Assembly (NCBI GenBank): GCA_028705565.1
Contig: JAQWDH010000002.1
Location: 40,262-104,261, forward strand
Length of the DNA stretch: 64,000 nt
Reading direction: 5' to 3'
DNA from: Patescibacteria group bacterium
GTDB lineage: Bacteria > Patescibacteriota > Patescibacteriia > Magasanikbacterales > GWA2-37-8
Part shown: positions 91 through 26,389 of the stretch, in pieces
Position numbering within the stretch: the first letter of the stretch is position 1
How the letters are laid out: each line of letters starts with the position of its first letter
Made by a program: the position numbers and the translations under genes
Notes under the pieces: model-generated
The model's database searches: none
Seen by the model: the letters and a program-made list of their open reading frames with translations, nothing else
What the model was told of the DNA's origin: nothing

Positions 91-96
91 TGCTTA

Positions 97-297: not shown

Positions 298-300
298 ATT

Positions 301-714: not shown

Positions 715-723
715 AATTATAAA

Positions 724-1404: not shown

Positions 1405-1430
1405 ATTAAATTAAAATCAAATGTTTAGAA

Positions 1431-1823: not shown

Positions 1824-1834
1824 ATGAAATTAAA

Positions 1835-2170
1835 TTATTTTTTCTTCGCTTCAGCCGCGGCAGGAGCGGCTCCGGCAGTAGCTGTCTTGGCGGTTTCTTG
1901 TTCTTTCGCCATCTTTCCTCCGTGTCTCACAAATTTACGGCTTGGAGAAAACTCACCCAGTTTATGACCAACCATATTTTCATCAACCAAAACGGAAATA
2001 AAATCTTTTCCATTGTGCACCAAAAAAACCATTCCGACCATTTCCGGAGAGATGGCGCAAGCGCGCGACCATGTTTTAATCGGTTCGCGTTTGCCGACCT
2101 CCCTCATTTTTAAAACTTTCTTTAAAAGTCGGGGGTCAACATACATTCCTTTTTTCAAACTTCTTGACAT
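1835..2170 (-). CDS. rpsS: 30S ribosomal protein S19 (Ala-rich C-terminal tail)
   Basis: Contains HNGK.F..V....MVGHKLGEF..(T/S)R, the S19 core. Confidence 0.9.
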
Positions 2171-2187
2171 AATTGATTGATTTAAAA

Positions 2188-3039
2188 TTATTTACCTTTT
2201 TTGGATTTACGGCGCGATTTAATAATGAACTTGTTGCTCCACTTGCCCGGCTTTCTTGTTTTTACGCCTCTTGCCGGTTTGCCGTAAACGGTTTGCGGAC
2301 CGCGTTTCTGACCTATCGGGCTGTGCCCTTCTCCGCCTCCGTGCGGGTGGTCAACAGGATTCATATTTTTACCCTTTACTCTCGGTTTTATGCCTCTGTG
2401 GCGCATACGACCGGCTTTTCCCCATCTTATCAAACGGAAATCTGAATTTCCCAAAATACCTACGCTGGCTGAACATTCTTTCGCGATTGACCTGATTTCA
2501 CCGGACGGCAGTTTGATTTGCGCGTATTTGCCTTCAAATCCTACCAACTGCGCCGACATTCCTGCTCCTCGCACCATTTGTCCGCCTTTTTTAGGAGTAA
2601 GTTCTATGTTATGAATAAATAAACCTATCGGAATATATTCCAAAGGCATACGATTGCCCATTTTCGCTTCCATGTTTTTGTCATCCGACATAACTTTATC
2701 ACCGACTTTCAAATTGTCTGGACATAAAATATACGATTTTACCCCGTCTGTGTATTCAATCAAAGCGATTCTCGGCCCTCTGTTCGGGTCGTATTCCACG
2801 GCTTTAACGACAGCTTCAATTCCGTATTTTTGTTGTTTAAAATCAACCAAACGATAATATTTTTTAGCTCCTCCACCCTGATGGCGAACGGTAATCACGC
2901 CTTGATTATTGCGTCCGGATTTTTTCTTTAAAATTTTCACCAACGATTTTTCAGGTTCAAATTTTGTTACATCTGAAAAAGTGTCCGCGCTTGATTTGCG
3001 GCGTCCTGCGCTCGTTGGTTTGTAAACTTTAATCGACAT
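2188..3039 (-). CDS. rplB: 50S ribosomal protein L2
   Basis: 283 aa with L2 motifs including the HPHGGGEG box. Confidence 0.97.
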
Positions 3040-3111
3040 AAATTATTATTATAATTTGGACTATGTTGGACTGTGTTTGACTTTAAACTATGGACTATAG
3101 ACCGTAAACCG

Positions 3112-3543
3112 TTATACTCCTTCATGGATATTTATCGTCTTTCCTGCGGGCAAAGCGACAATCGCTTTTTTATAATCAGATCTGCGTCCCGGAATTCCGC
3201 GGCTTTTTAAAACGCGTCCGTCAATGTTGACTGTGTTCACACTCTCGGGTACTACTCCGTAAACATCATTCATAGCTTTCTTGATTTGTTTTTTATTCGC
3301 TGAACGGCTTACGACAAAAGTATATTTATTCACGCTCTCGGCTATCGCGGCTTTTTCAGTTACCAAAGGATAAAGCAAAATTTTATAAGCCGCGCTTTGC
3401 AAATTTGTTTTGGTTAATTTGCGCGCGACAGGTTCTTTATCCGCGATTTTTTGCGTACTCTCAACAGCTTCCTTTTTTGACGGAGTTTCATTCTTTTTGC
3501 TTTCTTCTTTCTTCTTTTTTAACAAACGGTCTATTAAACTCAT
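3112..3543 (-). CDS. rplW: 50S ribosomal protein L23 (with N-terminal extension)
   Basis: C-terminal 90 aa match L23 (LLYPLVTEKA...). Located between rplD and rplB. Confidence 0.85.
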   Translation of the reverse strand: MSLIDRLLKKKKEESKKNETPSKKEAVESTQKIADKEPVARKLTKTNLQSAAYKILLYPLVTEKAAIAESVNKYTFVVSRSANKKQIKKAMNDVYGVVPESVNTVNIDGRVLKSRGIPGRRSDYKKAIVALPAGKTINIHEGV

Positions 3544-3544
3544 A

Positions 3545-4174
3545 TTATTTTCCTAAAATTTCTTCTAATTTAGCCACGCCTTCCTTGTTTATAATTACAA
3601 CCGGTTTTGATAAAATTTCCACGACATTCAAATCTTCGGCTTGCATGGTTTTCGCTTTCGGCAAATTTCTTGTCATTTGCAAAACATTTTCATTTTTTCC
3701 GGCTGTCAAAATTAAAACTCTATCGTCTTTTGCCGGCAATAATTTTAAAAAATTCGCGAAAAGTTTGGTCTTTGGTTCAATAAAATTAAAATCTTCCACC
3801 ACCATAAAACCGTTATTCGCCACTTTGTCAGACAAACACATTTTCAAAGCCAAACGGCGAATTTTTTTGTTTATTTTACCTTTATAATTTCTGGTTGAAA
3901 GAGGACCGAATGCCACGCCGCCGCCTTTCCATATCGGCGACCTGATAGAGCCGTGTCTGGCACGACCTGTGCCTTTTTGTGGCCACGGTTTTTTTCCGCC
4001 TCCGCTAACTTCGCCTTTTCCTTTCGTGTCGGCCCACGGTTGGCGCGCTATATTTCTTAACGCCACAAAAACTTGATGGACAGTATCCTGTTTCACCGGC
4101 ACATTAAAAACCTTATCCGACAAATTAATTTCGCCGGTTTCTTTTCCTTCCAAATTGTAGACTTTTACTTTCAT
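3545..4174 (-). CDS. rplD: 50S ribosomal protein L4
   Basis: 209 aa L4/L1e family sequence. Operon position matches. Confidence 0.9.
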   Translation of the reverse strand: MKVKVYNLEGKETGEINLSDKVFNVPVKQDTVHQVFVALRNIARQPWADTKGKGEVSGGGKKPWPQKGTGRARHGSIRSPIWKGGGVAFGPLSTRNYKGKINKKIRRLALKMCLSDKVANNGFMVVEDFNFIEPKTKLFANFLKLLPAKDDRVLILTAGKNENVLQMTRNLPKAKTMQAEDLNVVEILSKPVVIINKEGVAKLEEILGK

Positions 4175-4177
4175 ACT

Positions 4178-4909
4178 TTAAATGGTTTCTTTTTCTTTTT
4201 TGTCTTCTTCTTTTTTTTCTTCCGGCTTTTCTTCAATTATCAATTCGGATGTCGGTTCGGACACATTTTGTTCAACAGGTTGCGGGGCTGTTTTTATTTT
4301 CAATTCTCCGTCTCCGATGATGACGATCAATCCGTTTCTGCCGCCCGGTACCGCTCCTTTTATATATAACTCGTCGGTTTCAGGATGAATTTCAACAATT
4401 TCCAAATTTTTTACTGTTACTTGATTTCCTCCCATTCTTCCTGCCATGCGCATTCCTTTAAAAACTCTCTGAACGCCACCGGCTCCGATTGAACCAGGCG
4501 CGCGCAAATCATGTTTGTGACCGTGTGAAGCCGGAGCTCCGGCAAAATGATGTCTTTTAACAACGCCTGCAAAACCCTTGCCTTTTGATTCTCCAAACAC
4601 ATTAACCTTGTCTCCAATGGAAAAAGTTTCCACGGTTATTTCGTCTCCGCGTTTTATGTTTCCAACCGATTCAACCGCGAATTCTTTAATCCATTTTGAT
4701 TGTTTTAAATCTTTAAGGTGTCCGGATTGCGGTTTTGGCAAACTGTCTTTTTTTGCTTCTCCCAAACCTATCTGCACGAATTTTTTATTTTCATCGTTCA
4801 CTTGCGTTATCTGGCAAGGTCCGGCTTGCACCCTTGTCACAGGCACAACTAAACCGTCTTCTTTGAAGACCTGCGACATACCAATTTTTTTTGCTAAAAT
4901 AAATTTCAT
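4178..4909 (-). CDS. rplC: 50S ribosomal protein L3 (acidic C-terminal extension)
   Basis: 243 aa matching L3 core motifs, in operon order. Confidence 0.9.
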   Translation of the reverse strand: MKFILAKKIGMSQVFKEDGLVVPVTRVQAGPCQITQVNDENKKFVQIGLGEAKKDSLPKPQSGHLKDLKQSKWIKEFAVESVGNIKRGDEITVETFSIGDKVNVFGESKGKGFAGVVKRHHFAGAPASHGHKHDLRAPGSIGAGGVQRVFKGMRMAGRMGGNQVTVKNLEIVEIHPETDELYIKGAVPGGRNGLIVIIGDGELKIKTAPQPVEQNVSEPTSELIIEEKPEEKKEEDKKEKETI

Positions 4910-4964
4910 ATTTGAGAGGGTAATCCAAAACTGTCACCTTTCGTAGTTCGTATATAATATAAAA

Positions 4965-5014
4965 ACTAGAAGCGACAACATTGAACATTTTAAAATTCAA
5001 CCCTGTCGCTTCTA
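4965..5014 (-). terminator. 12-bp perfect inverted repeat hairpin (ctagaagcgaca/tgtcgcttctag, 26-nt loop) followed on the minus strand by a T-run; terminator- or attenuator-like, upstream of rplC
   Basis: Read directly from the sequence. It lies in the unusual 345-bp rpsJ-rplC spacer. Confidence 0.45.
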
Positions 5015-5254
5015 GCCTTCTCAAAAAAAGAACGGCTAAATTTTATCAATCAATTTTAATGTTTTTTCTCCTTCGTTATACGCGTCCTCACATAAATGTT
5101 TTTTGTTTCTTCCCCGCGTTTTGGCGGAAAGCCACAAATCTTATTTAGCCGGACGCAAATAACAATTTGAATAGTATCTACACACTACTATAAAACGATT
5201 TTTTTGTCAATAACCCTAAATTCGCTGATTCGTTTTAACGCGAAACGCGCAATT

Positions 5255-5644
5255 TTACATTTTAATTTCTATATCCACGCCGGTCGGCAAATTCAAACTC
5301 ATTAAAGCGTCAACGCATTTCGGGGTAGGATTCAAAATGTCAATCAAACGTTTGTGCACGCGCATTTCATATTGTTCGCGCGCGTTTTTATGCACGAAAG
5401 TTGAACGATTAACAGTAAATTTGGAAATTTCAGTCGGCAACGGAATAGGTCCGATAACTTTGGCATCGTTGCGTTCAGCAGTATCAATAATCGTTTTGCT
5501 TGCTTGGTCTATTATTTTCGTGTCGTAAGCGCGAATTTTTATTCTGATGCGGTTCACGGTTTCAGCGTTTTTTTGAATCGCCTGCTCCGATGTTTTAGCC
5601 GGTTCCGTTGTTTTTTTAGCAGTTGTAGTTTTTTTAGTAACCAT
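5255..5644 (-). CDS. rpsJ: 30S ribosomal protein S10 (N-terminal extension)
   Basis: C-terminal 100 aa match S10 (IRIKIRAYD...[11 protein letters not shown]). Confidence 0.9.
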
Positions 5645-5665
5645 AAGAAAGAACTTTCATAGGAA

Positions 5666-5692
5666 AGGGGGCGCTAATAATAACGCCCCCTT
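5666..5692 (-). terminator. GC hairpin (agggggcg...cgccccct) between tuf and rpsJ; possible attenuator or terminator
   Basis: Inverted repeat read from the sequence; a moderately T-rich tail follows on the minus strand. Confidence 0.35.
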
Positions 5693-5699
5693 CGCCTAC

Positions 5700-6890
5700 T
5701 TATTTTAATATTTTAATTACGACGCCTGCGCCGACGGTTCTGCCGCCTTCGCGAATGGCGAAGTTCATTTTTTCTTCCAAAGCCACCGGTGTAATCAATT
5801 TGACGTTCAAATTGACAGTGTCTCCTGGCATAACCATTTCCGTGCCGGCGGGCAATTCAACTTCGCCGGTAACATCCGTGGTGCGAATATAAAATTGCGG
5901 TTTATAACCTTTGAAAAACGGTTTGTGGCGTCCACCTTCTTCTTGATTCAAAACATAAACCTGCGCTTCAAAATCAGTATGAGGAGTAACGCTACCCGGC
6001 TTGGCCAATACCATACCGCGTTCAACTTCATCTTTCTTTGTGCCGCGTAAAAGTATACCGGCGTTATCTCCTGCCACGCCCTCTTTCAATGTTTTGTTAA
6101 ACATCTCAATGCCGGTAACCACTGTCTTTTGCGGTTCTTCTTTCAAACCGACTATCTCCGCATCATCGTTCACGTGAACAACGCCTCGGTCAATACGACC
6201 GGTCACGACTGTTCCGCGACCTTCAATGGAAAAGACATCTTCAATCGCCATAAGAAACGGCTTGTCAATGTCGCGTTGCGGATCAGGAATATACTCGTCC
6301 AAAGTTTTGAGCAAATCCAAAACCGGCTTTGACGCTGTTTCATCAGAAGGATTCTGAAGCGCCTGTAAAGCCGAACCGCGGATAATCGGAGTGGTATCTC
6401 CTGGAAATTTATATTTTTTAAGCAAATCGCGCACTTCAGCTTCCACCAAATCAATCAATTCCGGATCTGATACTTGGTCAACTTTATTCAAGAAAACGAT
6501 AATATAAGGCACGCCTACCTGACGAGCGAGCAAAATATGTTCGCGTGTCTGAGGCATCGGACCGTCTGCGGCGGAAACAACCAAAATAGCGCCATCCATC
6601 TGTGCCGCGCCTGTTATCATGTTCTTTACGTAATCGGCATGACCAGGACAATCCACATGCGCGTAGTGCCTCTTTTCAGTTTCATACTCAACGTGAGCGG
6701 TAGAAATGGTGATACCGCGAGATTTTGATTCCGGAGCTTTGTCCAAATCATCAACGCCTTTTTTCTGGGCGGTCATACCGCGGGCGTTCATGACCTGCAG
6801 AATGGCTGCGGTCAAAGTTGTTTTACCGTGGTCAACGTGGCCAATGGTACCAACATTGACATGCGGTTTGTTTCTTGCAAACTCTGCCAT
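5700..6890 (-). CDS. tuf: elongation factor Tu
   Basis: 396 aa with [17 protein letters not shown] and NKVD GTPase motifs. Confidence 0.98.
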
Positions 6891-7006
6891 AAACTTATTT
6901 TTTGCGGCACTGCTCCGAGTGGTCGGCGCAGATTTTTAACCAGCCGCTTCTGTTTTTTTTATAAAAAATTATATTTTCGCTTATTTCTTTTTTACGATAA
7001 GCTTCT

Positions 7007-7035
7007 ACATTATAGCATATATTCAAAATTTTGGC
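7007..7035 (-). promoter_or_regulatory. sigma70-type promoter TTGCCA-17bp-TATAAT driving tuf
   Basis: On the minus strand, -35 TTGCCA (7030-7035) and -10 TATAAT (7007-7012) are separated by exactly 17 bp, about 115 nt upstream of the tuf ATG. Confidence 0.6.
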
Positions 7036-7052
7036 AAGAGCCGGTAAAAACT

Positions 7053-7514
7053 TTACGCTACCGGCTCCAAATAATACCTGTCCTCTTCTTCGTCCGGAGC
7101 GTCGCTCGGAATATCGGCTAAACTTTCTTCTGTCTCTTCCGGCTGAATTTTTTCAATTTCTTTTTCTTCTTCTATCAAATCTTTTTTAAAATCATTGATA
7201 TCAACATCTCCAAAATTTTCAAAATTTTCGCCGTCTTCTTCGTTCTTTTTTATATGTTCGTCTTTGATTTCAAAACTTTTCGCTTCTTCTTTTTTTTCAT
7301 GTTCCGAACGCCAAACCGATATATCCCTATTTATTTTATTTAACATTTCTTCTTCATTCAAATCGCGTATGGTTTCTTTTTCGTCAAGCAATTTTTCATA
7401 TTCGCCAATGCTCATCATCATAAAAGCGCTGTCCGTATCTTTATCCAAAATCGCGCATCTGTCTCCTGTGCGGCGAATCAATTTCAAAATTTTATTTAAT
7501 TGCGGATCTGTCAT
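7053..7514 (-). CDS. hypothetical protein with a Phd/YefM-antitoxin-like N-terminal region and a highly acidic C-terminal tail
   Basis: The N-terminus KILKLIRRTGDRCAILDKDTDSAFMMMSIGEYEKL resembles the YefM/Phd core ([22 protein letters not shown]). The C-terminal half is D/E-rich. It is inserted between fusA and tuf. Confidence 0.4.
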   Translation of the reverse strand: MTDPQLNKILKLIRRTGDRCAILDKDTDSAFMMMSIGEYEKLLDEKETIRDLNEEEMLNKINRDISVWRSEHEKKEEAKSFEIKDEHIKKNEEDGENFENFGDVDINDFKKDLIEEEKEIEKIQPEETEESLADIPSDAPDEEEDRYYLEPVA

Positions 7515-7546
7515 ATTTTTTTAAAAAATATAAAAATTAGTCGGGT

Positions 7547-9619
7547 TTATTTTTGCTTGCCGGAAATTATATCTTGCGCGATATTGTTCGGCACTTCGGC
7601 GTAATGTCCGAATTCCATCGTTGAACTCGCGCGCCCTTGAGAAATACTGCGCAAAGAAGTGGCATAACCGAACATGCTCGCCAAAGGCACGATGGCTTTC
7701 ACGACTTTCATCTGCGCCCTGTCAAACATTTTCTGTATTTGGCCCCTTTTGGAATTCAAATCGCCGATTACTTCACCCATAAATTGTTCCGGCGTTACGA
7801 CTTCAACTTTCATAATCGGTTCCAAAATCGCCGGACGCGCTTTTTTACAAGCGGCTTGAAAAGCCATTGAACCCGCTATTTTGAAAGCGGCTTCCGAAGA
7901 ATCAACTTCGTGATAAGAACCGTCAAAACAACTTACCTTGATATCAACCACCGGATAACTCGCTTGGATACCGCGAGTAACGGCTTCTTTGACACCCTTT
8001 TCAATGGCCGGCAAATATTCTTTCGGAATAACACCACCTTTGATTTCATCAACGAATTCATAATTGCCGTCTGTTTTCGGTTCCACTCTCAACCAACAAT
8101 GGCCGTATTGTCCGCGACCGCCTGATTGTTTTATGTATTTCCCTTCGGCTTCGGCCATGGCGGTGATTGTTTCTTTATAAGCAACTTGCGGTTTTCCGAC
8201 ATTGGCGTCAACTCCGAATTCTCTCTTCATTCTGTCCACGATTATGTCCAAATGCAATTCTCCCATTCCGGAAATAATGGTCTGTAAAGTTTCTTCATCT
8301 GTGTGAACTTTAAATGTCGGGTCTTCTTCCATAAGTTTTTGCAAAGCCATGCTGATTTTTTCTTGGTCAGCTTTTGTTTTCGGTTCAATGGCAATAGAAA
8401 TAACAGGTTCCGGAAATACTATTTTTTCTAAAATCAACGGATGATTTTCGTCGCACAAAGTATCACCGGTGACAGTGGCTTTAAGACCTATCGCGGCCGC
8501 GATTTCTCCAGCATACACTTCTGCCACATCTTCGCGATGATTCGCGTGCATGCGCACGATGCGGCTTAAACGCTCCTTTGTTCCATTGGAAGAATTAAAA
8601 AGATAACTGCCGGCGGAAATATGGCCCGAGTAAACGCGGAAAAATATAAGACGGCCGACAAACGGATCGGTTGCAACCTTAAAAGCCAAAGCAGAAAAAG
8701 GTTCTTCATCGCTCGGTTTCCGTAATTCCTCAACATCATTGTCCGGATTTATTCCTTTTACAGGCAACAAATCAGTTGGAGCCGGCAAATACCAGGCAGC
8801 TGCGTCCAAAACCAATTGAACACCCATGTTCGCAAGCGCGGAACCGCACAATACCGCAAAAAAATCTCCTTTAATCGTCAAGGCGCGTATTGCTTTTTTT
8901 ATTTCATCAACTGTTAAAATTTCGCCGTTTAAATACCTTGCCATATATCCATCGTCTGCTTCAACAACTTTTTCCATCAATTTTGCCCTGTATTCTTTTA
9001 CCTTGTCTTTCATATCGTCAGGAATTGGAATTTCCACTATTTTTTCTCCGTTCTGGCCTTCAAATTTAAACGCTTTTTCTTCTATTAAATCAATGATGCC
9101 GGAAAATGTTCCTTCCGCGCCGATTGGCAATTGAACGGCGTAAGCGTTTGAAGATAGTCGTTCATTGATTGAATCCAAACTCATATAAAAATCCGCGCCC
9201 ATTTTATCCATTTTATTTACAAAACAAACTCGCGGCACATTGTATTTGTCCGCTTGATGCCAAACCGTTTCAGATTGCGGTTCAACGCCCTGCGAACCGT
9301 CAAACACGGCCACAGCTCCATCCAAAACGCGGAGAGACCTCTCTACTTCCACGGTAAAATCCACGTGCCCCGGAGTATCAATAATGTTTATTCTGCAACC
9401 TTTCCAAAAACAAGTGGTCGCGGCGGAAGTAATGGTGATGCCGCGCTCTTTTTCCTGTTCCATCCAATCCATTTCAGCGGCGCCTTCATGCACTTCGCCG
9501 ATTTTATGTTTTTTTCCTGTATAAAATAAAATACGTTCGGTGGCAGTGGTCTTGCCCGCGTCAATATGCGCCATGATGCCTATGTTACGCGTTTGTTCCA
9601 AAGAATATTCTCGTGACAT
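7547..9619 (-). CDS. fusA: elongation factor G
   Basis: 690 aa with [17 protein letters not shown] and full EF-G domain layout. Confidence 0.98.
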
Positions 9620-9644
9620 ACGAAAAAATTTTAAATTTTATCAG

Positions 9645-10121
9645 TTATTTTGAAAACCTCGCGAAATGCGCGAACGCTTTATTCGCGTCGGCCATGCGAT
9701 GCACTTCGTCTCGTTTTTTAACGGCGTCGCCCATACCTTGTGAAGCTTCAAAAAGCACGGTGGCTAATTTTTCGCGCATCGGCTGTCCTTTTTTATTTCT
9801 TGCCGCTTCAACTATCCAACGGAATGTCAAAGCGGTTTGTCTGGCGCTTGAAACAGGCAACGGCACCTGGTAATTTGCGCCTCCGACGCGTCTGGAACGG
9901 ACTTCAACCTGCGGTTGAACATTTTTAACAGCTTCTTCAAAAACTTTTAACGGGTCGCTCTTTGAAATTTGAGCCATTTTTTCAAATGCGTCATATACAA
10001 TACCCTGCGCCACGCTTTTCTTTCCGCCCTTCATAATGAAATTTATAAACTTGGCGAGAGGAACATTGCCGTATTTGATATCTGGCTTTATAATTCTTTT
10101 TTCAACTTTTTTTCCACGCAT
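9645..10121 (-). CDS. rpsG: 30S ribosomal protein S7
   Basis: S7 core sequence. The start is moved to the internal Met (MRGKKVEKRIIKPD) at 10121. The longer ORF would overlap rpsL by about 80 nt. Confidence 0.85.
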   Translation of the reverse strand: MRGKKVEKRIIKPDIKYGNVPLAKFINFIMKGGKKSVAQGIVYDAFEKMAQISKSDPLKVFEEAVKNVQPQVEVRSRRVGGANYQVPLPVSSARQTALTFRWIVEAARNKKGQPMREKLATVLFEASQGMGDAVKKRDEVHRMADANKAFAHFARFSK

Positions 10122-10158
10122 AAAATAAATTTTAATTTTGAATTTTTTGATTTTTAAA

Positions 10159-10587
10159 TTATTTTTTTGCGGCTTTTGGCCTCTTTGTGCCATACACGCT
10201 TCGGCCCCTGCGGCGCGTTTCAATTCCTTGCGTATCATAAACGCCGCGCACTATATGATAGCGCACGCCCGGCAAATCTTTCACCCTTCCGCCGCGAATG
10301 AGCACGATGGAGTGTTCCTGCAAATTATGTCCTTCGCCCGGGATATAAGCTATAACTTCAATTCCGTTACTAAGACGAATTTTTGCGACTTTTCGCAAAG
10401 CCGAATTCGGTTTCTTCGGGGTAGTCGTATAAACCTTTACGCACACGCCCCTTTTAAATGAAGCGCCCTTCGGCAATTCATTTTTTTTACGGTGTAAATT
10501 ATCCACCGAAAGCTGTAAAGCCGGCGTTTTGCTTTTGCGAACCTTGTTTGTTCTGCCCTTGCGGACCAATTGGCTTATAGTAGGCAT
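10159..10587 (-). CDS. rpsL: 30S ribosomal protein S12
   Basis: 142 aa, [12 protein letters not shown]...[10 protein letters not shown], nearly invariant S12 sequence. Confidence 0.98.
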
Positions 10588-10605
10588 ACTTTAAAATAAT
10601 TTTTA

Positions 10606-10621
10606 ATTCCTGCCAACAGGC
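10606..10621 (-). promoter_or_regulatory. 5' UTR hairpin or palindrome CCTGCC-N4-GGCAGG immediately upstream of the rpsL start
   Basis: Perfect 6-bp arms. The same motif recurs upstream of another gene start at 36858-36873 and inside repeat elements. Confidence 0.4.
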
Positions 10622-10786
10622 AGGTTATAAATTTTAATTTTTAAATTAAGTAAAAAAAATACTGAACGGAAAGCTCAGCCACGAGTTTATATCTGATACG
10701 TTCTAAATAAGAGTATACTTGAAAACGAAAATTATGTCAAGAGCCGAAAAGAACCCGAGAAAACCGAATTATTTTTCGGTAATTTT

Positions 10787-11158
10787 TTAGATTATTTCAA
10801 CGCGGTCGCACCCTAATTGCTTGAGTTTATCTTGTATTTTTGATATTACATTTTGTTTTTGCCGCGATATTTTTTCAATCTTTAAAATTCTTTCCGAGTC
10901 ATCATCCTCTTGCGCTGTTTGTTTGGCTTCTTCTACCATTCTATCAAATTCACTTCCGTCAATTTTAAATATCCCATTCTCTAAAACGACCATGCTGCTT
11001 GGCCAAATAGCTTCGCCATGTGGATCGGCTTCTTCGTTAATGAATTTATTTAGCAACTGATTAATTTCCGGATCGTAGTCAAGTTGATTATATATTGATT
11101 CAAGATTAATCTTATTCCTCTCTTGCGGAGAAATTGTGTCTTTAAATTTTTCTGCCAT
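10787..11158 (-). CDS. hypothetical protein (acidic, 123 aa)
   Basis: ORF with no recognisable motif. Confidence 0.4.
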   Translation of the reverse strand: MAEKFKDTISPQERNKINLESIYNQLDYDPEINQLLNKFINEEADPHGEAIWPSSMVVLENGIFKIDGSEFDRMVEEAKQTAQEDDDSERILKIEKISRQKQNVISKIQDKLKQLGCDRVEII

Positions 11159-11299
11159 AATATTTTGGTTAAATTTAAAACAATTAAATTATACCGCAAG
11201 TTGCGCCGACCGTAAAGTATTATAAAAATTTTCGGATATAACGCATAACGTACGCATAAATGAGGTGCCGCCTTAACAATATGGGTGGAGCGAAGCGAA

Positions 11300-11420
11300 A
11301 CCGAATACACGCTGTTAGGCGATGCAAAATTTTACGCTTTTTGTTTTTTTCGCTCGCCATTAAATCTTGAGTGGCAGGGGGGGGGCGTCGATCACTATGG
11401 CGAAGGGGATGGCCCCTCGT
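11300..11420. repeat. Repeat element copy A with a G9 homopolymer tract. It shares ~75 nt (gctgttaggcg...ttttacgctttttgttttttt...G-tract...cgtcgatcactatggcgaagggg) with copy B at 14590-14745.
   Basis: Direct sequence comparison of the two regions. The G-tract is striking in an AT-rich genome. The copy overlaps the last codons of the 11395..13401 ORF. Confidence 0.6.
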
Positions 11421-13401
11421 TGTAACTTGCCGTGTTTATCCAGGTATGCTCATTTTTATTCCACAAAATTTTATTATTAATTTGCGCGCTACTTACGGTT
11501 ATTTCAGAAGTATTTTTTAAATATTCATCTCTTATTTCACAAATTATTTTTTTTGTTCCGCTTAATATTAAATCAGAATTACCATCTTTATTTGTATCTT
11601 TATATTCACTCGCCAATTTATCATTGGAAAAAATTTCTCCGCAATTACCGTATCCGTATTTTTTAAAATTGTCAGGCGACCATTTGATATCAGGGTTGAT
11701 GTCAACTGCATGGGTTTCAAACAATAAATTTAGCTTATCATTTTTAATTTCATAAATATATAAAGAACCATGACCAACATGCGTTAATCCATAAATCTCC
11801 ACTAATGGATTACCAAAACCTTCTAAACTAATAAATCTTGCCGATAAAATAGCCTGCTCACCAGGTAATTTATCTATTGGCAGCCAATTTATATTTTTAT
11901 TCTTGACATTACCAACTTTTATTTCTTCCCACCAGTCTCTCTCCCATTCTATTTGCGCCAAAAAATATTTTTTATTTTGGCTATATGTTAATTCAATGTC
12001 TTCCAGTTGTTCACTTTGCCCTTTCACAATTTGATCTTTTATTTTATTCTCCAATGAATAGACAATACTGCCATTCAAAAATAACGGCAATATCATGATT
12101 AATAAAATTGACCAAAGGCGAATTATTCCTAGCTTTTTGTCTTTTTTTACACCTTTCTTATATATATTCCAAACATTATCTACGTATTCTTGTTTACCAG
12201 GGCCGTATTTTAAGACAGCTTCTTGCCATGATTTCCAATATCTTTTATTATCAGGGGTTATACCTTGAGCTTTGTGATAAAGCCATCTTACACCCCAATT
12301 AATACTGTCCTTGACTGTTTCCACCTTAGCATCATATTTTAAAAGTATTGTTTTACCATTATGAATCCAATATTCCGGAAGCTCTCCTCTTAGGGTTAAT
12401 ATTGACGGATCACCTCCATTTCCAACTTGCATGACATTTGATCCAGCCATTTTATCAAACCCCACTCTGCTTTCTTGGTACATTATCGCCTTCACTAAAT
12501 TAGGATCTAAAAATTCGCTGGGTGGATCAGTATCTTTCAAAAATTCATTATTCCAGTAAGTGACCGCTTCTGCTATTATCGCGTCATATCGGTTATAATC
12601 TTCCTTGCACCCAACACCCCCGCATGTATAAAGTCTAGTAATTGCTTCATTATTTTCGCCATTACTATTATTAGTAGCCAAAACCATTATTTCAATCTTT
12701 TTTAAAGTTGGACTTTTGTCCGCCCACAGCTCAATAAAATGTTTTCCTTTCCCCAAATTCAACTCTTTTGTATATTCCCTTTCATTCCCTTTTAACATTT
12801 TTCCACACCAATACCAATCTTTATGCGAATTTTTATTTTCGTTTTCTTCTACTTTGCCGTCAACAACCACTTTAATATCATCGTCATCTCTTTTTAATTT
12901 ATTCGCGCTTGCAACGATATGGAGTTTTTTAATGGCTAAATTTTGTAAAACATAATTTATCCATGGCCTCCTGTCTCCTTTTTCTGGTGGATTATTATTT
13001 AATGGAGAATAAATTATTGTTTGGTTATCCATTTCTTCCAATTCCATTATATTGATGCTTTCTAAACTTGGACTTTGGTCAGGCCGCAATCGAAGAGTGT
13101 GCCCGCCTTTCTTTAAAATGGTGGCAACCAGTACTATTTTTGATAATCCTTTTAACTCATTGCCGTTCCAAATTGCTTTAACATCAATGTCCTTGCTGTT
13201 TGAAGTAAAAATTTCAGTATTGTCTAAATACAAAATTATATCATCATCTTTAAAAAAAGATCTAAAACTTTTAAAGTTTTGCCACCAGCTTTTTGCTTTG
13301 GCTATTACTTCAATCAAATAAACACCCTCATTTGTTTCAAAAAAATAAAAAAAATCTTCTTTTATTTCTTTGTTTATTTTTTGGCTATGAAGTAATTTCA
13401 T
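11395..13401 (-). CDS. large multidomain protein with two internal repeated modules, a lytic-transglycosylase (SLT)-like motif (AIMYQESRVGFD), a central transmembrane helix and a C-terminal domain
   Basis: The ES-containing motif resembles the SLT catalytic glutamate region. A hydrophobic segment LGIIRLWSILLIMILPLFL is present. The C-terminal residues read into repeat element A. Confidence 0.5.
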   Translation of the reverse strand: MKLLHSQKINKEIKEDFFYFFETNEGVYLIEVIAKAKSWWQNFKSFRSFFKDDDIILYLDNTEIFTSNSKDIDVKAIWNGNELKGLSKIVLVATILKKGGHTLRLRPDQSPSLESINIMELEEMDNQTIIYSPLNNNPPEKGDRRPWINYVLQNLAIKKLHIVASANKLKRDDDDIKVVVDGKVEENENKNSHKDWYWCGKMLKGNEREYTKELNLGKGKHFIELWADKSPTLKKIEIMVLATNNSNGENNEAITRLYTCGGVGCKEDYNRYDAIIAEAVTYWNNEFLKDTDPPSEFLDPNLVKAIMYQESRVGFDKMAGSNVMQVGNGGDPSILTLRGELPEYWIHNGKTILLKYDAKVETVKDSINWGVRWLYHKAQGITPDNKRYWKSWQEAVLKYGPGKQEYVDNVWNIYKKGVKKDKKLGIIRLWSILLIMILPLFLNGSIVYSLENKIKDQIVKGQSEQLEDIELTYSQNKKYFLAQIEWERDWWEEIKVGNVKNKNINWLPIDKLPGEQAILSARFISLEGFGNPLVEIYGLTHVGHGSLYIYEIKNDKLNLLFETHAVDINPDIKWSPDNFKKYGYGNCGEIFSNDKLASEYKDTNKDGNSDLILSGTKKIICEIRDEYLKNTSEITVSSAQINNKILWNKNEHTWINTASYNEGPSPSP

Positions 13402-19802: not shown

Positions 19803-19930
19803 AAAATTAAAATTAAACAGACTATAGACTAAGGACTATTGACCATTGTCGCGGACTGTGAATCAATTGTCCAATAAATACACAATACCACAATCTTGCT
19901 TTTTGAGTCAAAAAATGATATATATACGAG

Positions 19931-21238
19931 ATGCGAAATTATATGAAATTTTTTGAGACAATTCACCAAGACAAAAAAAGCCGCGCGCGAGCCGGCATAA
20001 TCCGCGCTGAACACGGCGATATTGAAACGCCGGTTTTTATGCCTGTCGGAACGCAGGCTGTCGTAAAAACTTTGGATAGCGAAGATTTGGAAAAAATCAA
20101 CGCGCAAATTATTTTGGGAAACACATATCATCTGCATCTTCGGTCCGGAGAAGATTTAATCGCGGAAATGGGCGGGCTTCACAAATTTATGAATTGGAAC
20201 AAACCGATTCTCACCGACTCGGGCGGTTTCCAAGTTTTCAGTTTAGGAAAATCATTATTACGACCCACATCTTGTAGAGAGTTGGGATACACCTCAAACA
20301 ATACAAAAATGGATTACAAATCTACCAACAAGGCAGATGGGAATTTCAACTGTCATTCCCGTGAAAACGGGAATCCAGACAATTTGGCGATGGATTCCCG
20401 CCTGCGCGGGAATGACAATACAAAATTGGTAAAAATTGACGACGATGGAGTGTCGTTTCGCTCGCACATTGACGGTTCAAAACATCGCTTTACTCCGGAG
20501 TCGGCGACTGAAATTCAAAATAAGCTCGGCGCTGATATTATTATGGCTTTTGACGAATGCACGCCGGATGAAGCGCCATACGAATACGCGCGGAAAGCGT
20601 TAGACCGCACGCACGACTGGGCGAAAAGATGCTTGGATTTTCATCAAAAAAACAAAAAAAACGAAAAACAATTTTTATTTGGCATCATTCAAGGCGCGAA
20701 GCATAAAGATTTAAGAGAAGAATCCGCCCATTTTATTTCTTCGCTTGATTTTGACGGCATTGCCATAGGCGGAGAATCAATCGGTTATAATATGGAGGCC
20801 ACAAAAGAAATAATGGATTGGGTAACGCCGATTATTCCGGAAAATAAACCGCGCTATACCATGGGTGTCGGACTTGACCCCGCTGATTTATTGCAAGTTG
20901 TGGAAAGCGGAGCAGATATGTTTGATTGCGTCGCCCCAACGCGATTAGCAAGGCATGGTGTGCTGTTTATCAGCGATAAAGCGGACTGTAAACATCGCCT
21001 AAACATTACCAACGCTCAATACACAAAAGACGCGAGTCCGATTGATGAAAAGTGCGAATGTCCTGTTTGTCTGAAATATACTCGCGCTTACATCCATCAT
21101 CTTTTTTTAGCCGATGAAATGACCGGCATGCGCCTCGCTTCAATCCATAACCTGTATTTTATGCTTGATTTAATGCGTAAAACCCGACAGGCGATTTTGG
21201 AAGACAATTTTATGGAATTTAAGAAAAAATGGAAATAA
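19931..21238 (+). CDS. tgt: queuine tRNA-ribosyltransferase carrying an in-frame ~60-aa insertion derived from a palindromic repeat element
   Basis: Tgt motifs are present (PVFMPVGTQA, DSGGFQVFSLG, FDEC, zinc site CxCxxC...H). Compared with E. coli Tgt (SLGDIRKITEQGVHF), the insert is KSLLRPTS...NCHSRENGNPD...MDSRLRGNDN...; the genuine start may be Met5. Confidence 0.85.
   Translation: MRNYMKFFETIHQDKKSRARAGIIRAEHGDIETPVFMPVGTQAVVKTLDSEDLEKINAQIILGNTYHLHLRSGEDLIAEMGGLHKFMNWNKPILTDSGGFQVFSLGKSLLRPTSCRELGYTSNNTKMDYKSTNKADGNFNCHSRENGNPDNLAMDSRLRGNDNTKLVKIDDDGVSFRSHIDGSKHRFTPESATEIQNKLGADIIMAFDECTPDEAPYEYARKALDRTHDWAKRCLDFHQKNKKNEKQFLFGIIQGAKHKDLREESAHFISSLDFDGIAIGGESIGYNMEATKEIMDWVTPIIPENKPRYTMGVGLDPADLLQVVESGADMFDCVAPTRLARHGVLFISDKADCKHRLNITNAQYTKDASPIDEKCECPVCLKYTRAYIHHLFLADEMTGMRLASIHNLYFMLDLMRKTRQAILEDNFMEFKKKWK
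20351..20417. repeat. MITE-family palindromic core (tgtcattcccgtgaaaacgggaatcc ... ggattcccgcctgcgcgggaatgaca) embedded in-frame in tgt
   Basis: Sequence identity to the internal palindromes of the MITE at 13528-13692. Confidence 0.7.
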
Positions 21239-21242
21239 AAAT

Positions 21243-21722
21243 ATGCTTAATATAACTTTAATAACTCTCGGAAAACTCAAAGAAAAATACTGGCGCGACG
21301 CTGAAGCTGAATATATGAAACGATTGAAGCCATACGCCAAAATCACGATTCGCGAATTGAAAGAAGAATCTTTTTCCGAGAAAGACAACCATGAAACGAT
21401 AAAAAAGAAAGAAGCGGAAAAAATCGCGCGCGCTTTGAATTCATTAAAAAATAATTTTATTATTATCTTGGATGAACACGGACAAGAGTCTCCTTCTTTT
21501 GACTTCGCGCGAAATTTTGACGACGCGATGTCAAAACAATCCGGCAACGCCGTGTTTATCATCGGCGGACCTCTTGGATTGGACGAATCAATTTTAAAAC
21601 TCGCTCATCTCAAATTATCGCTATCCAAAATGACATTCACGCACCAAATGGCGAGAGTGTTTCTTTTGGAACAAATTTATCGCGCGATGATGATAAAACA
21701 AGGCAGAAAATACCATTATTGA
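21243..21722 (+). CDS. rlmH: 23S rRNA (pseudouridine1915-N3)-methyltransferase RlmH (SPOUT)
   Basis: Collinear with E. coli RlmH, including the C-terminal ...THQMARVFLLEQIYRA....HY. Confidence 0.8.
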   Translation: MLNITLITLGKLKEKYWRDAEAEYMKRLKPYAKITIRELKEESFSEKDNHETIKKKEAEKIARALNSLKNNFIIILDEHGQESPSFDFARNFDDAMSKQSGNAVFIIGGPLGLDESILKLAHLKLSLSKMTFTHQMARVFLLEQIYRAMMIKQGRKYHY

Positions 21723-21893
21723 CGGACGACGGACGTAATTGTCATTCCCGCGAAAGCCATGCCTACCGGCAGGCAGGCGGAAATCCAGAAACTTTGCTAA
21801 ATGACAATTGAAATGACAATCAAAATTATAGACAATCCCTTTAAAATCATCTACACTAAACATATCGCGAGACATTAAATATACAATATAAAT

Positions 21894-22871
21894 ATGCAAC
21901 GCATTTTATCCGGCATACAGCCGACAAACAAACTTCATCTCGGAAATTACCTGGGGGCCATAAAAAATTGGGTTAATTTGCAAAATCAATTTGAATGCTT
22001 TTTTTTCATTGTTGATTTGCATGCCATCACGGTAAAACAAGACCCAAAAATTCTGCGCGAAAACACATTGGATGTGATAAAAACATACATCGCTTTGGGC
22101 GTTAACCCGAAAAAATCCATAATTTTCGTTCAATCGGATATAAAAGAACACGCCGAACTCGCATGGATTTTAAATACCATCACAAAAATATCCGAATTGG
22201 AAAGGATGACTCAATTCAAGGATAAATCGCGCCAACACGCTGAAAACATTAATGTCGGGCTTTTTGCTTATCCGGTGTTGATGGCCGCGGATATTTTGCT
22301 TTATAACACAAATCTTGTGCCGGTTGGGGAAGACCAGACACAACATTTGGAGTTGTCTCGTCTTCTCGCTAATAGATTTAACCAATTATTCGGCGACACT
22401 TTCATTATTCCGGAACCGTTTATCGGAAAACAAGGAGCTCGCGTGATGGGTCTGGACGACCCGACAAAAAAAATGAGCAAAGGCGCTTCCTCGCCAAATA
22501 ATTATATCGCGCTTTTGGATGACCCGGATGTCGCGAGGAAAAAAATAATGAAAGCGGTAACCGACTCCGGCTCGGAAATTAAAGCGGCGGATAACAAACC
22601 CGCGCTCGCGAATCTTTTAACGATTTATTCTCTGCTCGCGGATAAAACAATCAAAGAAATTGAAAAAGAATACGCCGGACGCGGATACGCGGATTTTAAA
22701 AAAGGGCTGGCTGAAACTACTGTAAAATTCCTCGCGGATTTTCAAAAAAAATTCAACTCCATCGGCGACGCGGAGGCGAAAAAGATATTAAAAAGCGGAG
22801 CTGAAAAAGCGCGCTCTGTCGCATTTAAAAAAATGAAAGAAATTAAAGAAAAAATCGGCTTGGGTTTTTAA
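21894..22871 (+). CDS. trpS: tryptophanyl-tRNA synthetase
   Basis: Class I motifs HLGNY (HIGH-like) and KMSKGAS (KMSKS), about 325 aa. Confidence 0.9.
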   Translation: MQRILSGIQPTNKLHLGNYLGAIKNWVNLQNQFECFFFIVDLHAITVKQDPKILRENTLDVIKTYIALGVNPKKSIIFVQSDIKEHAELAWILNTITKISELERMTQFKDKSRQHAENINVGLFAYPVLMAADILLYNTNLVPVGEDQTQHLELSRLLANRFNQLFGDTFIIPEPFIGKQGARVMGLDDPTKKMSKGASSPNNYIALLDDPDVARKKIMKAVTDSGSEIKAADNKPALANLLTIYSLLADKTIKEIEKEYAGRGYADFKKGLAETTVKFLADFQKKFNSIGDAEAKKILKSGAEKARSVAFKKMKEIKEKIGLGF

Positions 22872-22882
22872 TTTAAAAAAAT

Positions 22883-23284
22883 ATGAGTGAAAGAGAAAAT
22901 TTTAATTTTGAAAAAGAAAAATATAAAAAATTTCCGATAGACGAAATCGTTGATATTTTGGAAGAAACAAAAGAAATGAACGGAAAAACTGAAAAAGAAA
23001 TTATACGGCTCGCGAAAAATTACATTAAAGAATTGAGCGGCGGAAAAAAAATTGAAGAAATTTTGAAAGAAGCCAAGGAAATGATTGACCCGCGCGACCG
23101 CGAACATCCGGATAATGACGGCTCGCTCATGGCGGAAATTGAGATAATCCCTTTTAAAAATAAAGATATAAATGACACCACGGCGTCTTTTTTACTGCGT
23201 GAAAAAAATAATCCTCGGTTTAATGTCCAAAAAAATAAAGGATATATAATTATGGAAATTCCATACAACGATTTGCTTGATTGA
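22883..23284 (+). CDS. hypothetical protein
   Basis: ORF only. Confidence 0.35.
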   Translation: MSERENFNFEKEKYKKFPIDEIVDILEETKEMNGKTEKEIIRLAKNYIKELSGGKKIEEILKEAKEMIDPRDREHPDNDGSLMAEIEIIPFKNKDINDTTASFLLREKNNPRFNVQKNKGYIIMEIPYNDLLD

Positions 23285-23352
23285 ATTTTATCGGGTTAAT
23301 TATTTAAATTTTTCAATTAAAATAGGCCCGCCGAAACGGCAGGCCTTTTTTG

Positions 23353-24024
23353 TTATTTAAAATATTCCAGATAATCCGGAATTTTCGTTACAGGATTATC
23401 TGAAATAAATTCTTTGTCTTCCTCTTTTTCCGGAAGCCAGCAATTTTTAATTATTTTAATTTTTTTTCTTATTAAAATTTCTTTCAAAATACACTTAAGT
23501 TCCGAAGGGCTGTACGCTCCTCTCTTTATCCCTTCGTTTTTTATCAGATGTTCCATTAAAAAATACACGAATTTGTTGGCTTTTTTATCTTTATCTGTGT
23601 TTACGCCTTCTTTTTCCATTTTTTCCAACTCAATTAATTTTTTTTCAAGATAGAGAACTTCCGTCCCGAAAATGACACTCCAATAATATTCAAAAACATT
23701 ATTATCCTTATTACCCTTTGTAATTTGGGAGAATGTCCTTTCCCTAACGAGGTTTTCCACCTCAAATGGCGTTAGGTCGTACGACAATGGCGTTAGGTCA
23801 TACAACCACACCTTGAACAACCCGTGCCACGCCATATGGTGGCCTAAAAAAACTTCAATTATATTTTTTTTTGAATTTATTCCACCCCTGCACAACGGAA
23901 CACAATGATGTTCCGTTATAGTAGAGAGAAACCGCGGGATACTTACTTTTTTACGCTCTGGGCTTTTATTCTTCTTTGGTTTTTTTCTTCTACGCGTCAT
24001 CATTTTCCTCCTTTTCATTTTCAA
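23353..24024 (-). CDS. HNH-endonuclease-like protein with a highly basic N-terminal tail
   Basis: Motif EHHCVPLCRGGINSKKNIIEVFLGHHMAWH matches the HNH pattern HH..P...GG...N......H...H. The gene contains a 21-bp tandem duplication (YDLTPLSYDLTP). Confidence 0.5.
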   Translation of the reverse strand: MKMKRRKMMTRRRKKPKKNKSPERKKVSIPRFLSTITEHHCVPLCRGGINSKKNIIEVFLGHHMAWHGLFKVWLYDLTPLSYDLTPFEVENLVRERTFSQITKGNKDNNVFEYYWSVIFGTEVLYLEKKLIELEKMEKEGVNTDKDKKANKFVYFLMEHLIKNEGIKRGAYSPSELKCILKEILIRKKIKIIKNCWLPEKEEDKEFISDNPVTKIPDYLEYFK

Positions 24025-24509
24025 TCAAAAATTTTAAATTGTAGATAGTCCTCCAATACCTTTCCAACAACTTCAATTTTATTATCTGCCATAAATAACT
24101 TCCACCTTTTTTTAATCCCACTCTCCATATCAAATTCAATATGTCCGCCTGAAAATCCGATCCTCAAAATTAATCCGTCTTTCCCGTTTTTTTTGATATC
24201 CGCTAAAACATCGGTATTAACCATCTTCTCCGAGGAATATACTACATAAGAAACCACAGAAGAGCAGAAATCAGAAAAAAATTTCTCCACTTTAAAAATT
24301 TCTCCGTTCTGTTTGCCTACTGGCACTGAACAGCGAATTTCTATTTTTTTTCCGACAATTTCATTTAATTTCTTAAATTTTTTATTTGTTATTTCATTCA
24401 AAAACTCTACCAAAAATTTCTCCAGATCCTCGTTTTGTGATTCTTTGTTTTGTTCTTTTTTCATTTTTTCCTCCAATTTTTGTCCGCCTTCAGCGGACTG
24501 ATTTTTCAA
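24021..24509 (-). CDS. hypothetical protein; its stop overlaps the start of the HNH-like gene by 4 nt
   Basis: ORF with a 4-nt start/stop overlap, suggesting a two-gene operon. Confidence 0.4.
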   Translation of the reverse strand: MKNQSAEGGQKLEEKMKKEQNKESQNEDLEKFLVEFLNEITNKKFKKLNEIVGKKIEIRCSVPVGKQNGEIFKVEKFFSDFCSSVVSYVVYSSEKMVNTDVLADIKKNGKDGLILRIGFSGGHIEFDMESGIKKRWKLFMADNKIEVVGKVLEDYLQFKIFD

Positions 24510-24611
24510 AGTTCTTCCTCCTTATTCGTTTCTAAACTTACACTGTATCGCGGATTGTGTCAATACAAGCCCTTGATTTTTTTATTTTTTCTGGTATTAT
24601 TTAATGGACGA

Positions 24612-24685
24612 TAGGGGGTTCGTATAGTGGCAGTACAGCGGTCTCCAAAACCGTTAGCGCGGGTTCGATTCCTGCACCCCCTGCC
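24612..24685 (+). tRNA. tRNA-Trp (anticodon CCA), CCA end encoded
   Basis: Manual cloverleaf: acceptor agggggt/accccct, anticodon loop ctCCAaa, T-loop ttcgatt, 74 nt. Confidence 0.85.
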
Positions 24686-24690
24686 AATCA

Positions 24691-24725
24691 AAAAACCGTC
24701 CGGTAGAATGACCGGACGGTTTTTA
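24691..24725 (+). terminator. rho-independent terminator (aaaaccgtccgg...ccggacggtttt + T-run) after tRNA-Trp
   Basis: 12-bp stem followed by a T-rich tract. Confidence 0.7.
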
Positions 24726-24751
24726 GATTTTTACTTATTTTCTTCCGCTTC

Positions 24752-25303
24752 TTAAAATTTTTTTATTCTATTTCTAACCGATTCAACCACATCTTGAAAA
24801 TCCTTTTCTTCTTTCTCCTCGTCTCTTTTCTTTTTTTCTTCCGTTTCTTTTTGCGCTTCATTTTTTCTCTTGTCTTCCTCGTCTTTCTTTTTCTTTATCT
24901 CAATAAACGCCTCTTCTATCGCGTCTTCATCCGACTTTTCCGCTTCTTCCGTTTTTTTGTTCGCTTCTTCGGCTTGCCGCGCTTCATCTCTTAAAGAAAA
25001 ATTTTTTTCATTTTTTGTTTTATCTTCAAATAAAATACCAACATCGTCGCTTTTTTTTTCCAATCTCGGGTAAGATTTAAGCGGCCCGCCGATAATTTCT
25101 TCCACCTCTTTTTCTTTGGCGATTTTTTCCTCGGCTTTTTCCGCTTTTATTTTCATCGCCAATTTATCAGCTATTTCTTCCACGCTTTCCTCGGCTCTTA
25201 CGCCAACGCGTTTGTCATCTTCTTTTTGCGCGCCCATCATTTCTTTATCTTTTTTGCTTAAAAACTTTTCCAATCCCCTGTTTAAAAATTCTCCTATGGA
25301 CAT
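24752..25303 (-). CDS. hypothetical highly charged (K/E-rich) protein
   Basis: ORF only; low complexity. Confidence 0.35.
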   Translation of the reverse strand: MSIGEFLNRGLEKFLSKKDKEMMGAQKEDDKRVGVRAEESVEEIADKLAMKIKAEKAEEKIAKEKEVEEIIGGPLKSYPRLEKKSDDVGILFEDKTKNEKNFSLRDEARQAEEANKKTEEAEKSDEDAIEEAFIEIKKKKDEEDKRKNEAQKETEEKKKRDEEKEEKDFQDVVESVRNRIKKF

Positions 25304-25348
25304 ACTTTTATGGATTAAAAATAAATTATTCGTTGAATTCCATACAAT

Positions 25349-26191
25349 TTACTCGCCTAACTTATTAACATTTTTTAGCCCCTTCTTTTCATCGGATTTC
25401 AGTTTCCTATCAACTTTTTTTATATCTTCCTCAGCCGGTAAATTTTCCGGATAAATGCCTCTGGAAATTAAAGTTTTTCTAACCGACCGGCTGTTTGTAA
25501 TGTGTTCATCGGAAATTTGCATTTCGCTATTCAAACCTTTTTCTTTGGAATTAAAAATAGTAATCTCGGTGGCGAAATCTTTGGCTTTTAAAATAATGGT
25601 CGGCTGAAAATCAGCTAATGCTCGGCTGTCTGGAATTCCCAACCTATTTTTCATTTCTTGCGTGGTATAACCAAACAATGCCTTGTCGCCTTTGCTCCTG
25701 ATTAACCCAAAATTTTTATCGCTTCCGGTTTACTGGAAAATTACGCCTGAAAGTTCTTTTTCTGTTTCAGATAACTTTTGTCGCGCCAGCAACCGTTCCG
25801 AGTCCTGTATTCTTTTCTCTATAATCTCAAACTTTCTGGTTTGGACGGCAAAATATGTCTGAGCAAAGGCAATCTCTTCTTTCCGTGGGTCGCCATTTTG
25901 AGCTATGAGATAACAGGCATACCTGGTAAGCATTACATCAAGCACCTCTTTTTCCGCAGTTTTAGGCATTTTTATCGTTTTCCCGACATCGGCAAAATGA
26001 TCGGAGGTGGTCTGCCCGGATATTTCACAAGCCGTTTTCGCTTTAAAAATAACCTTCAAAAAATTATCCCACTTATCATATCCTAAAAGGTGTTGCAGGT
26101 CGCGCGCAAACCAAAATTCAATGCCATTTTCTGTCTTATTGATAAAAGATTCAAAATTTTGCGTTAGTGATTGTATGATTTGATGTTCCAT
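25349..26191 (-). pseudogene. dinD: DNA-damage-inducible protein D (DinD) homolog interrupted by one in-frame TAA (25730-25732); both halves are in the same frame
   Basis: The N-terminal half (EFWFARDLQHLLGYDKWDNFLKVIFKAKTACEISGQTTSDHF...TRYACYLIAQNGDP...QTYFAVQTR) is collinear with E. coli DinD. The C-terminal half continues in the same frame after the stop (...IFQ*TGSDKNFG...). Confidence 0.6.
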
Positions 26192-26319
26192 GCTATTTTG
26201 ATTTCAAAAATAATTTTAAAATAGCGAAGGTAATCCGCAGTCCGCAGTCCGTTATTTATAATTCCTAGCGAGCCACAGGCGAAAGTTTACTTTCATCTGG
26301 GGCGAGCGACGGAATTTCA

Positions 26320-26346
26320 AGTGATGTCACGCGCCGTGACATCACT
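26320..26346. promoter_or_regulatory. Perfect 11-bp inverted repeat (agtgatgtcac-N5-gtgacatcact) just upstream of the rplA promoter in the divergent dinD/rplA intergenic region; candidate operator
   Basis: Read directly from the sequence. Confidence 0.4.
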
Positions 26347-26360
26347 TATATTACACAATC

Positions 26361-26389
26361 TTGACAAAATCCGCAAACTGCGGTAAAAT
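26361..26389 (+). promoter_or_regulatory. sigma70-type promoter TTGACA-18bp-TAAAAT upstream of rplA
   Basis: Consensus -35 at 26361-26366 and -10 at 26384-26389. Confidence 0.55.

Follow-up and report, generated by a model that had tools for sequence, protein, structure and literature searches.

A DinD-family gene on the minus strand of the window, the whole 64,000-nucleotide stretch of DNA analyzed here, is interrupted by a single in-frame TAA, and we are highly confident that it represents ordinary gene decay, a young nonsense pseudogene in the known DinD/PDC-S13 family. The window comes from a 106.7-kb contig of the NCBI MAG "Patescibacteria group bacterium" (locus tags PHY40_) and carries one dinD copy. 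The gene occupies positions 25349 to 26191 and comprises a frame of 281 codons, 280 sense-equivalent codons and a terminal TAA; its minus-strand translation (...KELSGVIFQ-stop-TGSDKNFGLIRSKGDK...) contains one internal stop, the TAA at positions 25730 to 25732, and neither a frameshift nor a further stop was found in this frame. The premature stop is codon 154, at a former Gln codon that was most likely CAA. Upstream of it lie the 153 sense codons of an N-terminal module readable from the native ATG (positions 25733 to 26191), and downstream of it the C-terminal DinD half, 126 in-frame codons and the native TAA (positions 25349 to 25729), which is undecayed and presumably no longer translated. 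In the list of open reading frames (ORFs) the two parts appear in one shared frame as 25730 to 26191 (153 aa, ATG start) and 25349 to 25678, the latter a mechanical ORF that opens at the first TTG.

The family assignment rests on several models. The conceptual product, joined across the stop, matches the NCBIfam equivalog NF008573, DNA damage-inducible protein D, over profile positions 1 to 287 of 288, with a score of 358.4 bits (E=2.7e-107) against a curated cut-off of 242 bits; the upstream ORF (219.4 bits, E=6e-65) and the downstream in-frame part (126 bits, E=1.8e-36) each fall below the cut-off when taken separately, and cover profile positions 1 to 158 and 164 to 287, respectively. The first-pass annotation had described two ORFs in the same frame, collinear with DinD and separated by only one TAA, and these coordinates, with the single internal stop in 281 codons, bear out that description; a match of this strength lies well outside what chance would give. 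Residues 21 to 113 (window positions 25853 to 26131) form a Bro-N domain (Pfam PF02498, 47.8 bits versus a cut-off of 25.6). The PADLOC PDC-S13 model PDLC04919 aligns at positions 1 to 276 of 281 with residues 1 to 274 of the conceptual product (E=1.7e-113), which also matches PHROG 8036 and the first 260 residues of a "Type I specificity subunit" model (717 aa), a DinD-HsdS fusion. PADLOC PDC-S05 matches only residues 2 to 153 (E=4.5e-26); in that model, the module is joined to a different C terminus. Searching PDB sequences with a profile yielded no match. To relate the stop to domain boundaries, the closest intact homologue was modelled with AlphaFold2 on an alignment of 27 sequences, but at a mean pLDDT of 46 and a pTM of 0.21 the model was unusable and was discarded.

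E. coli DinD (b3645) shares this architecture, an N-terminal Bro-N domain followed by a conserved C-terminal half, and the window product is collinear with it over 269 residues at 36% identity (BLASTP against K-12, E=2e-50). Unlike the E. coli gene, the window copy is broken at codon 154, resides in a Patescibacteria host, and lies between rplA and a Lys/Glu-rich ORF. As cited in PMC10602874, Uranga et al. (2011) reported E. coli DinD to be an inhibitor of postsynaptic RecA filaments; this activity and SOS (LexA) induction belong to the E. coli protein, whose biochemistry is the only source for the function. The TAA had initially been placed where E. coli DinD has IFQN, and this placement does not survive alignment: the stop lies opposite "...AAQQA-GVA...", while IFQN is about 10 residues downstream, opposite "LIRSKG". 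On this alignment, the IFQ string common to the two proteins is a coincidence.

DinD-family members are encoded by one uninterrupted frame of roughly 275 to 290 codons, and the TAA at codon 154 breaks that frame; judged by its sequence, the window gene is a pseudogene of the family and not a functional member. The best 120 homologues listed in a protein search, at 76 to 88% identity and nearly all from Patescibacteria where a source was named, are all unbroken (267 to 294 aa, mostly about 280), and none is split. At the column of the stop, these proteins have Q in 108 cases, K in 5, H in 4, and R, Y, and N in 1 each. Among 88 loci for which DNA was fetched, the corresponding codon is CAA in 37, CAG in 15, AAA in 9, and an Arg codon in 20, with conserved codons on either side in relatives; the only loci with TAA are three contigs that match the window at 100% identity. 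No stop at column 154 was seen in any of the 120 proteins or the 85 nonidentical loci. The position is thus fairly conserved in close relatives, as first proposed, even though its equation with IFQN fails. Since CAA is the commonest codon and Q is present in 108 of the 120 proteins, the stop is most simply explained by one C-to-T transition from CAA to TAA. A CAA ancestor is most likely, drawn as it is from the majority codon, while the nearest relative (L004, 88% identical) has CAG at codon 154.

The TAA allele is reproducible. Three further public contigs carry the exact 153-aa ORF: Logan SRR22315502 (5.2 kb), ENA ERZ27247363 (1.2 kb), and JGI 3300029288 (1.2 kb). They come from three pipelines and match the window at 100% identity from end to end, TAA included; an allele that is byte-identical in three other assemblies is no one-off assembly error. 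A sequencing or assembly error in a genome that really reads CAA was among the options originally raised, and a single-base substitution is indeed the smallest possible artefact. Against this, four assemblies, the window's own among them, show the same bases throughout 1.2 to 5.2 kb, the ENA assembly carries MEGAHIT-style k141 contig names, the JGI community, dominated by the deletion-bearing sister strain described below, appears to differ from the window's source community, and an intact allele above 88% identity is not on record; we give an error only a very slim chance. A minor CAA allele may exist within the population. The 153-aa ORF is recorded in JGI, Logan, and ENA gene calls only and is absent from NCBI, where the accessions MDD4476744 (the K/E-rich neighbor) and MDD4476746 (dCMP deaminase) leave room between them for L1 only. 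We infer that NCBI treated dinD as a pseudogene, which fits this gap.

Wider searches returned neither an intact close allele nor a second lineage with the stop. No intact allele above 88% identity was present among the approximately 15 billion proteins behind the searched clusters, and the best match in a scan of GTDB species representatives was 82% identical. Metagenomes (241 million records) were scanned with the degenerate pattern ATH TTY SAR TAA ACN GGN WSN GAY ARR AAY TTY G, which encodes IF[Q/E]-TAA-TGSD[K/R]NF; it was found only in this strain's own 1,221-bp JGI contig. The same pattern with CAR replacing TAA matched 15 of the 89 loci collected up to that point, which indicates that it is sensitive to close relatives. 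By these sequence searches, the TAA allele is private to one strain.

This distribution bears on whether the TAA is decoded. Programmed readthrough or a suppressor tRNA would yield full-length DinD, possibly along with a short isoform, and the locus does resemble a recoded gene in having an in-frame stop, in place of Gln, followed by a homologous reading frame that is intact and consensus-like. Near-cognate tRNA-Gln commonly misreads UAA and UAG stops; UAA, however, is the least leaky bacterial stop. The locus differs from programmed recoding in that no other lineage conserves the stop and in that its context is not leaky: the genome prefers UAA as its terminator, an A comes directly after it here (UAA-A), and the 151 nucleotides around and after the stop fold with a z score of -1.03 relative to shuffled sequences, giving no stimulatory structure. 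Rfam at gathering thresholds finds only three tRNAs in the window and nothing at the stop; these tRNAs (Trp-CCA, Pro-TGG, and Ala-TGC) include no suppressor, a statement that applies to the window. The whole region has, moreover, simply been deleted by a sister strain. We consider such decoding a slimmer chance again than a sequence error, and of the three options offered in the first-pass annotation only a recent nonsense mutation stands, the error being opposed by the three concordant assemblies and programmed readthrough by the strain-private stop and its lack of a readthrough context. Reassignment of TAA as a sense codon throughout the organism, already thought unlikely at the outset, has a probability close to nil: genetic code 11 gives 58 ORFs of at least 100 aa that cover 87% of the window, 39 of the 58 end in TAA, and no other gene among those examined is split. 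More generally, an in-frame TAA followed by an undecayed downstream half is no evidence for recoding unless the stop is conserved across lineages.

The nonsense mutation appears to be recent. The 126 downstream codons contain no stops and no indels, and N234S is their lone departure from columns with 95% or higher conservation; as many or more such departures occur in 56 of 120 intact homologues, and the N-terminal part has none. An ω value for the C-terminal half could not be estimated, as synonymous sites are saturated relative to the nearest relatives, and only the ratio of dN in the C-terminal half to dN in the N-terminal half was usable. This ratio was 0.78 ± 0.17 in pairs involving the window gene versus 0.87 ± 0.29 in intact pairs, a comparison of low power given saturated pS values of 0.67 to 0.93. 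We take the lesion to be young because the downstream half lacks stops, frameshifts, and excess amino acid change. The same preservation counts against the pseudogene reading to some degree, in that it would also be expected from selection acting through readthrough.

A sister genome had been proposed as a point of comparison, and one was reached via cluster members of neighboring genes. The sister MAG (WC430_; JGI Ga0265297_10000654, 97.7 kb, here L090) is syntenic with the window: on the rplA side, its positions 1 to 5943 correspond to window positions 31900 to 25958 at 99.26% identity, and its positions 5944 to 10850 correspond to window positions 25360 to 20425 at 92.4% identity (both by blastn). 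It lacks window positions 25361 to 25957, an in-frame deletion of 597 bp that removes codons 79 to 277, including the TAA site. The remnant is an in-frame gene of 81 codons (MEHQ...KMPKT-LDE, then stop). Its 78 retained codons have acquired 7 substitutions, 3 of them nonsynonymous (L32P, L35F, and T62I), and L32P and L35F change sites that are invariant among all aligned homologues. Thus, the same gene has been struck in the sister by a deletion of its own, which supports decay. The dispensability of dinD at this locus follows from the deletion of codons 79 to 277 and the drift of the remnant, and two different lesions in two sister strains indicate that the gene is being lost in the lineage. 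Both alleles co-occur in the JGI sample, which includes the 1.2-kb contig carrying the window-type TAA and in which the deletion-bearing sister is the dominant strain; two co-occurring strains have therefore been caught with two different lesions. Contigs of other samples (L092 and L094 to L098) break off at window position 26314 or earlier, and none reaches dinD. Several assemblies are broken around the gene, and the structural variant created by the sister's deletion is a likely cause.

We also considered whether the nonsense mutation could be real and the locus still functional, either through the 153-aa Bro-N domain and following helix alone or through two polypeptides produced after re-initiation. 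The stop coincides exactly with the end of the module that PADLOC finds on another C terminus (PDC-S05), the conserved columns of the N-terminal part are fully kept, and a 101-aa downstream ORF was called by the gene callers of three pipelines. For re-initiation, however, the first in-frame starts beyond the stop are TTG-172 and ATG-180 (the downstream ORF would open at Met-180, or else at TTG-172), and neither is preceded by a Shine-Dalgarno-like purine run at the customary distance; the product would miss the strongly conserved TGSDKNFGLIRSKGDKALF stretch, and the absence of any split gene among the 120 close homologues speaks against two polypeptides. For a standalone N-terminal module, the sister strain has mutated the invariant L32 and L35 in addition to its deletion, so the module is not protected in this lineage. 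A functional locus is accordingly unlikely on either count. Since the N-terminal module is shared with other architectures (PDC-S05), the truncated protein may still have some activity. A stronger version, in which the 153-aa protein has been selected as a stand-alone DNA-binding or regulatory protein, or in which low-level UAA readthrough by tRNA-Gln supplies both isoforms, we regard as very unlikely; if either were true, continued selection, and not youth, would account for the perfect preservation of the downstream half.

The favored explanation, a young nonsense pseudogene, would proceed as follows. A C-to-T transition would have turned the Gln-154 codon CAA into TAA, so that translation from the native ATG would end after 153 residues, with the Bro-N domain and the helix that follows it. 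The 126 codons of the C-terminal half would no longer be made into protein, and full-length DinD would be absent. Relaxed selection probably drives the loss of dinD. The window copy is an orphan in a family often found inside type I restriction-modification (R-M) operons. A dinD-hsdS fusion has been described in Bibersteinia trehalosi (PMC4996451), the relative L006 has its gene between hsdS and hsdR, and hsdM or hsdR lies within 4 kb in 15 of 84 family loci (tblastn). In contrast to the dinD genes of type I R-M loci, the window copy is both orphaned and broken: no homologues of hsdM, hsdS, or hsdR were found in the 64-kb window (tblastn with HsdM, HsdS, and HsdR queries from L006), and the gene has no defense or R-M context, its neighbors being rplA, dCMP deaminase, tRNA-Trp, and TrpRS. 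Relatives at 80 to 88% identity have quite diverse gene neighborhoods. No minus-strand promoter-like site was found upstream of dinD.

The wider family behaves, as far as its sequences indicate, like a mobile accessory gene. Members at loci L008 to L087 are 54 to 83% identical at the amino acid level over very distant hosts, which include Patescibacteria, Bacteroidota, Planctomycetota, Verrucomicrobiota, Methanosarcinales, Nanoarchaeota, and Woesearchaeota MAGs. The dN is only 0.06 to 0.15 while synonymous sites are saturated, and this combination across distant hosts argues for strong purifying selection with wide horizontal transfer. The biological weight of the present case is small, a defense-associated, horizontally mobile accessory gene leaving a small Patescibacteria genome; the family is known, and gene decay of this kind is ordinary. 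For annotation, the 153-aa and 101-aa fragments listed as separate proteins in the JGI, ENA, and Logan calls should not be read as a new short Bro-N family.

Two other family members, in unrelated MAGs, carry a single in-frame TAA and are otherwise intact: L028 (positions 2951 to 3784, Bacteroidales MAG) and L060 (positions 827 to 1636, Caldithrix MAG). Together they give a base rate of 2 in 80 species-representative loci with a recent in-frame TAA of their own. Like the window gene, each has one TAA at a Gln-dominated column, Gln being the commonest residue there; unlike the window gene, both stops are at column 225 and not at column 154. The shared column raised the idea of a stop "hot spot" or of programmed recoding at column 225, which we rejected because the nearest relatives, 94% identical for L028 and 75% identical for L060, are intact. 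The intact nearest relatives mark the two stops as independent events, and we judge from the sequences that they are independent C-to-T hits on a Gln codon. In the window gene, 18 codons are one transition away from a stop, which puts a coincidence of this kind at about 1 in 18 per pair. Elsewhere in the family, a single TAG interrupts the frame at column 146 in the archaeal locus L085 (positions 4001 to 4807, Methanosarcinales MAG), for which pyrrolysine decoding and a pseudogene are both possible, and L079 (positions 4001 to 4816, Gracilibacteria) has 12 in-frame stops, as a UGA-reassigned code would give.

The comparison with the sister MAG also revealed a block of about 5.5 kb (window positions 19846 to 25360 versus L090 positions 5944 to 11332) in which identity is about 92.4%, down from about 99.3%. 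At one edge, this block meets the dinD deletion junction exactly. At the other, the sister has an extra gene encoding a GIY-YIG domain (L090 positions 11286 to 11747); L090 positions from about 11333 to 11805 are unmatched in the window, and the junction lies near window positions 19811 to 19846. From its sequence, the block looks like a recombination or co-conversion tract tied to a homing-endonuclease-like insertion. Within it, a hypervariable stretch at window positions 23500 to 24000 is 72% identical to the sister, versus 93 to 99% in adjoining bins. The ORF around this stretch (positions 23353 to 24024, minus strand, 223 aa) has no Pfam match and contains an HNH-like string, HHCVPLCRGG...H; both adjoining ORFs likewise lack a family match.

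The L1 gene rplA stands alone. Between positions 24613 and 27744, tRNA-Trp (24613 to 24686, plus strand) comes first, then two minus-strand genes (the Lys/Glu-rich ORF of 183 aa and dinD), then rplA, with a dCMP deaminase next to it on the far side; the usual partners of rplA, secE-nusG-rplK upstream and rplJ-rplL downstream, are missing. A short tandem, CGGACTG CGGACTG CGGA, occurs on the minus strand at positions 26232 to 26248, about 40 to 55 nucleotides 5' of the dinD ATG, and is identical in the sister strain across the aligned upstream stretch. The divergent intergenic region between dinD and rplA contains a perfect palindrome at positions 26319 to 26347, with 13-nucleotide arms and a 3-nucleotide spacer (AAGTGATGTCACG GCG CGTGACATCACTT), just 5' of a sigma-70-like promoter (11 of 12 matches) directed toward rplA at positions 26361 to 26389. 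Since no T-run follows it on either strand, the palindrome is more operator-like than terminator-like. Contigs L094 and L096, from two other samples, start at the palindrome, at positions 26323 and 26314, respectively.
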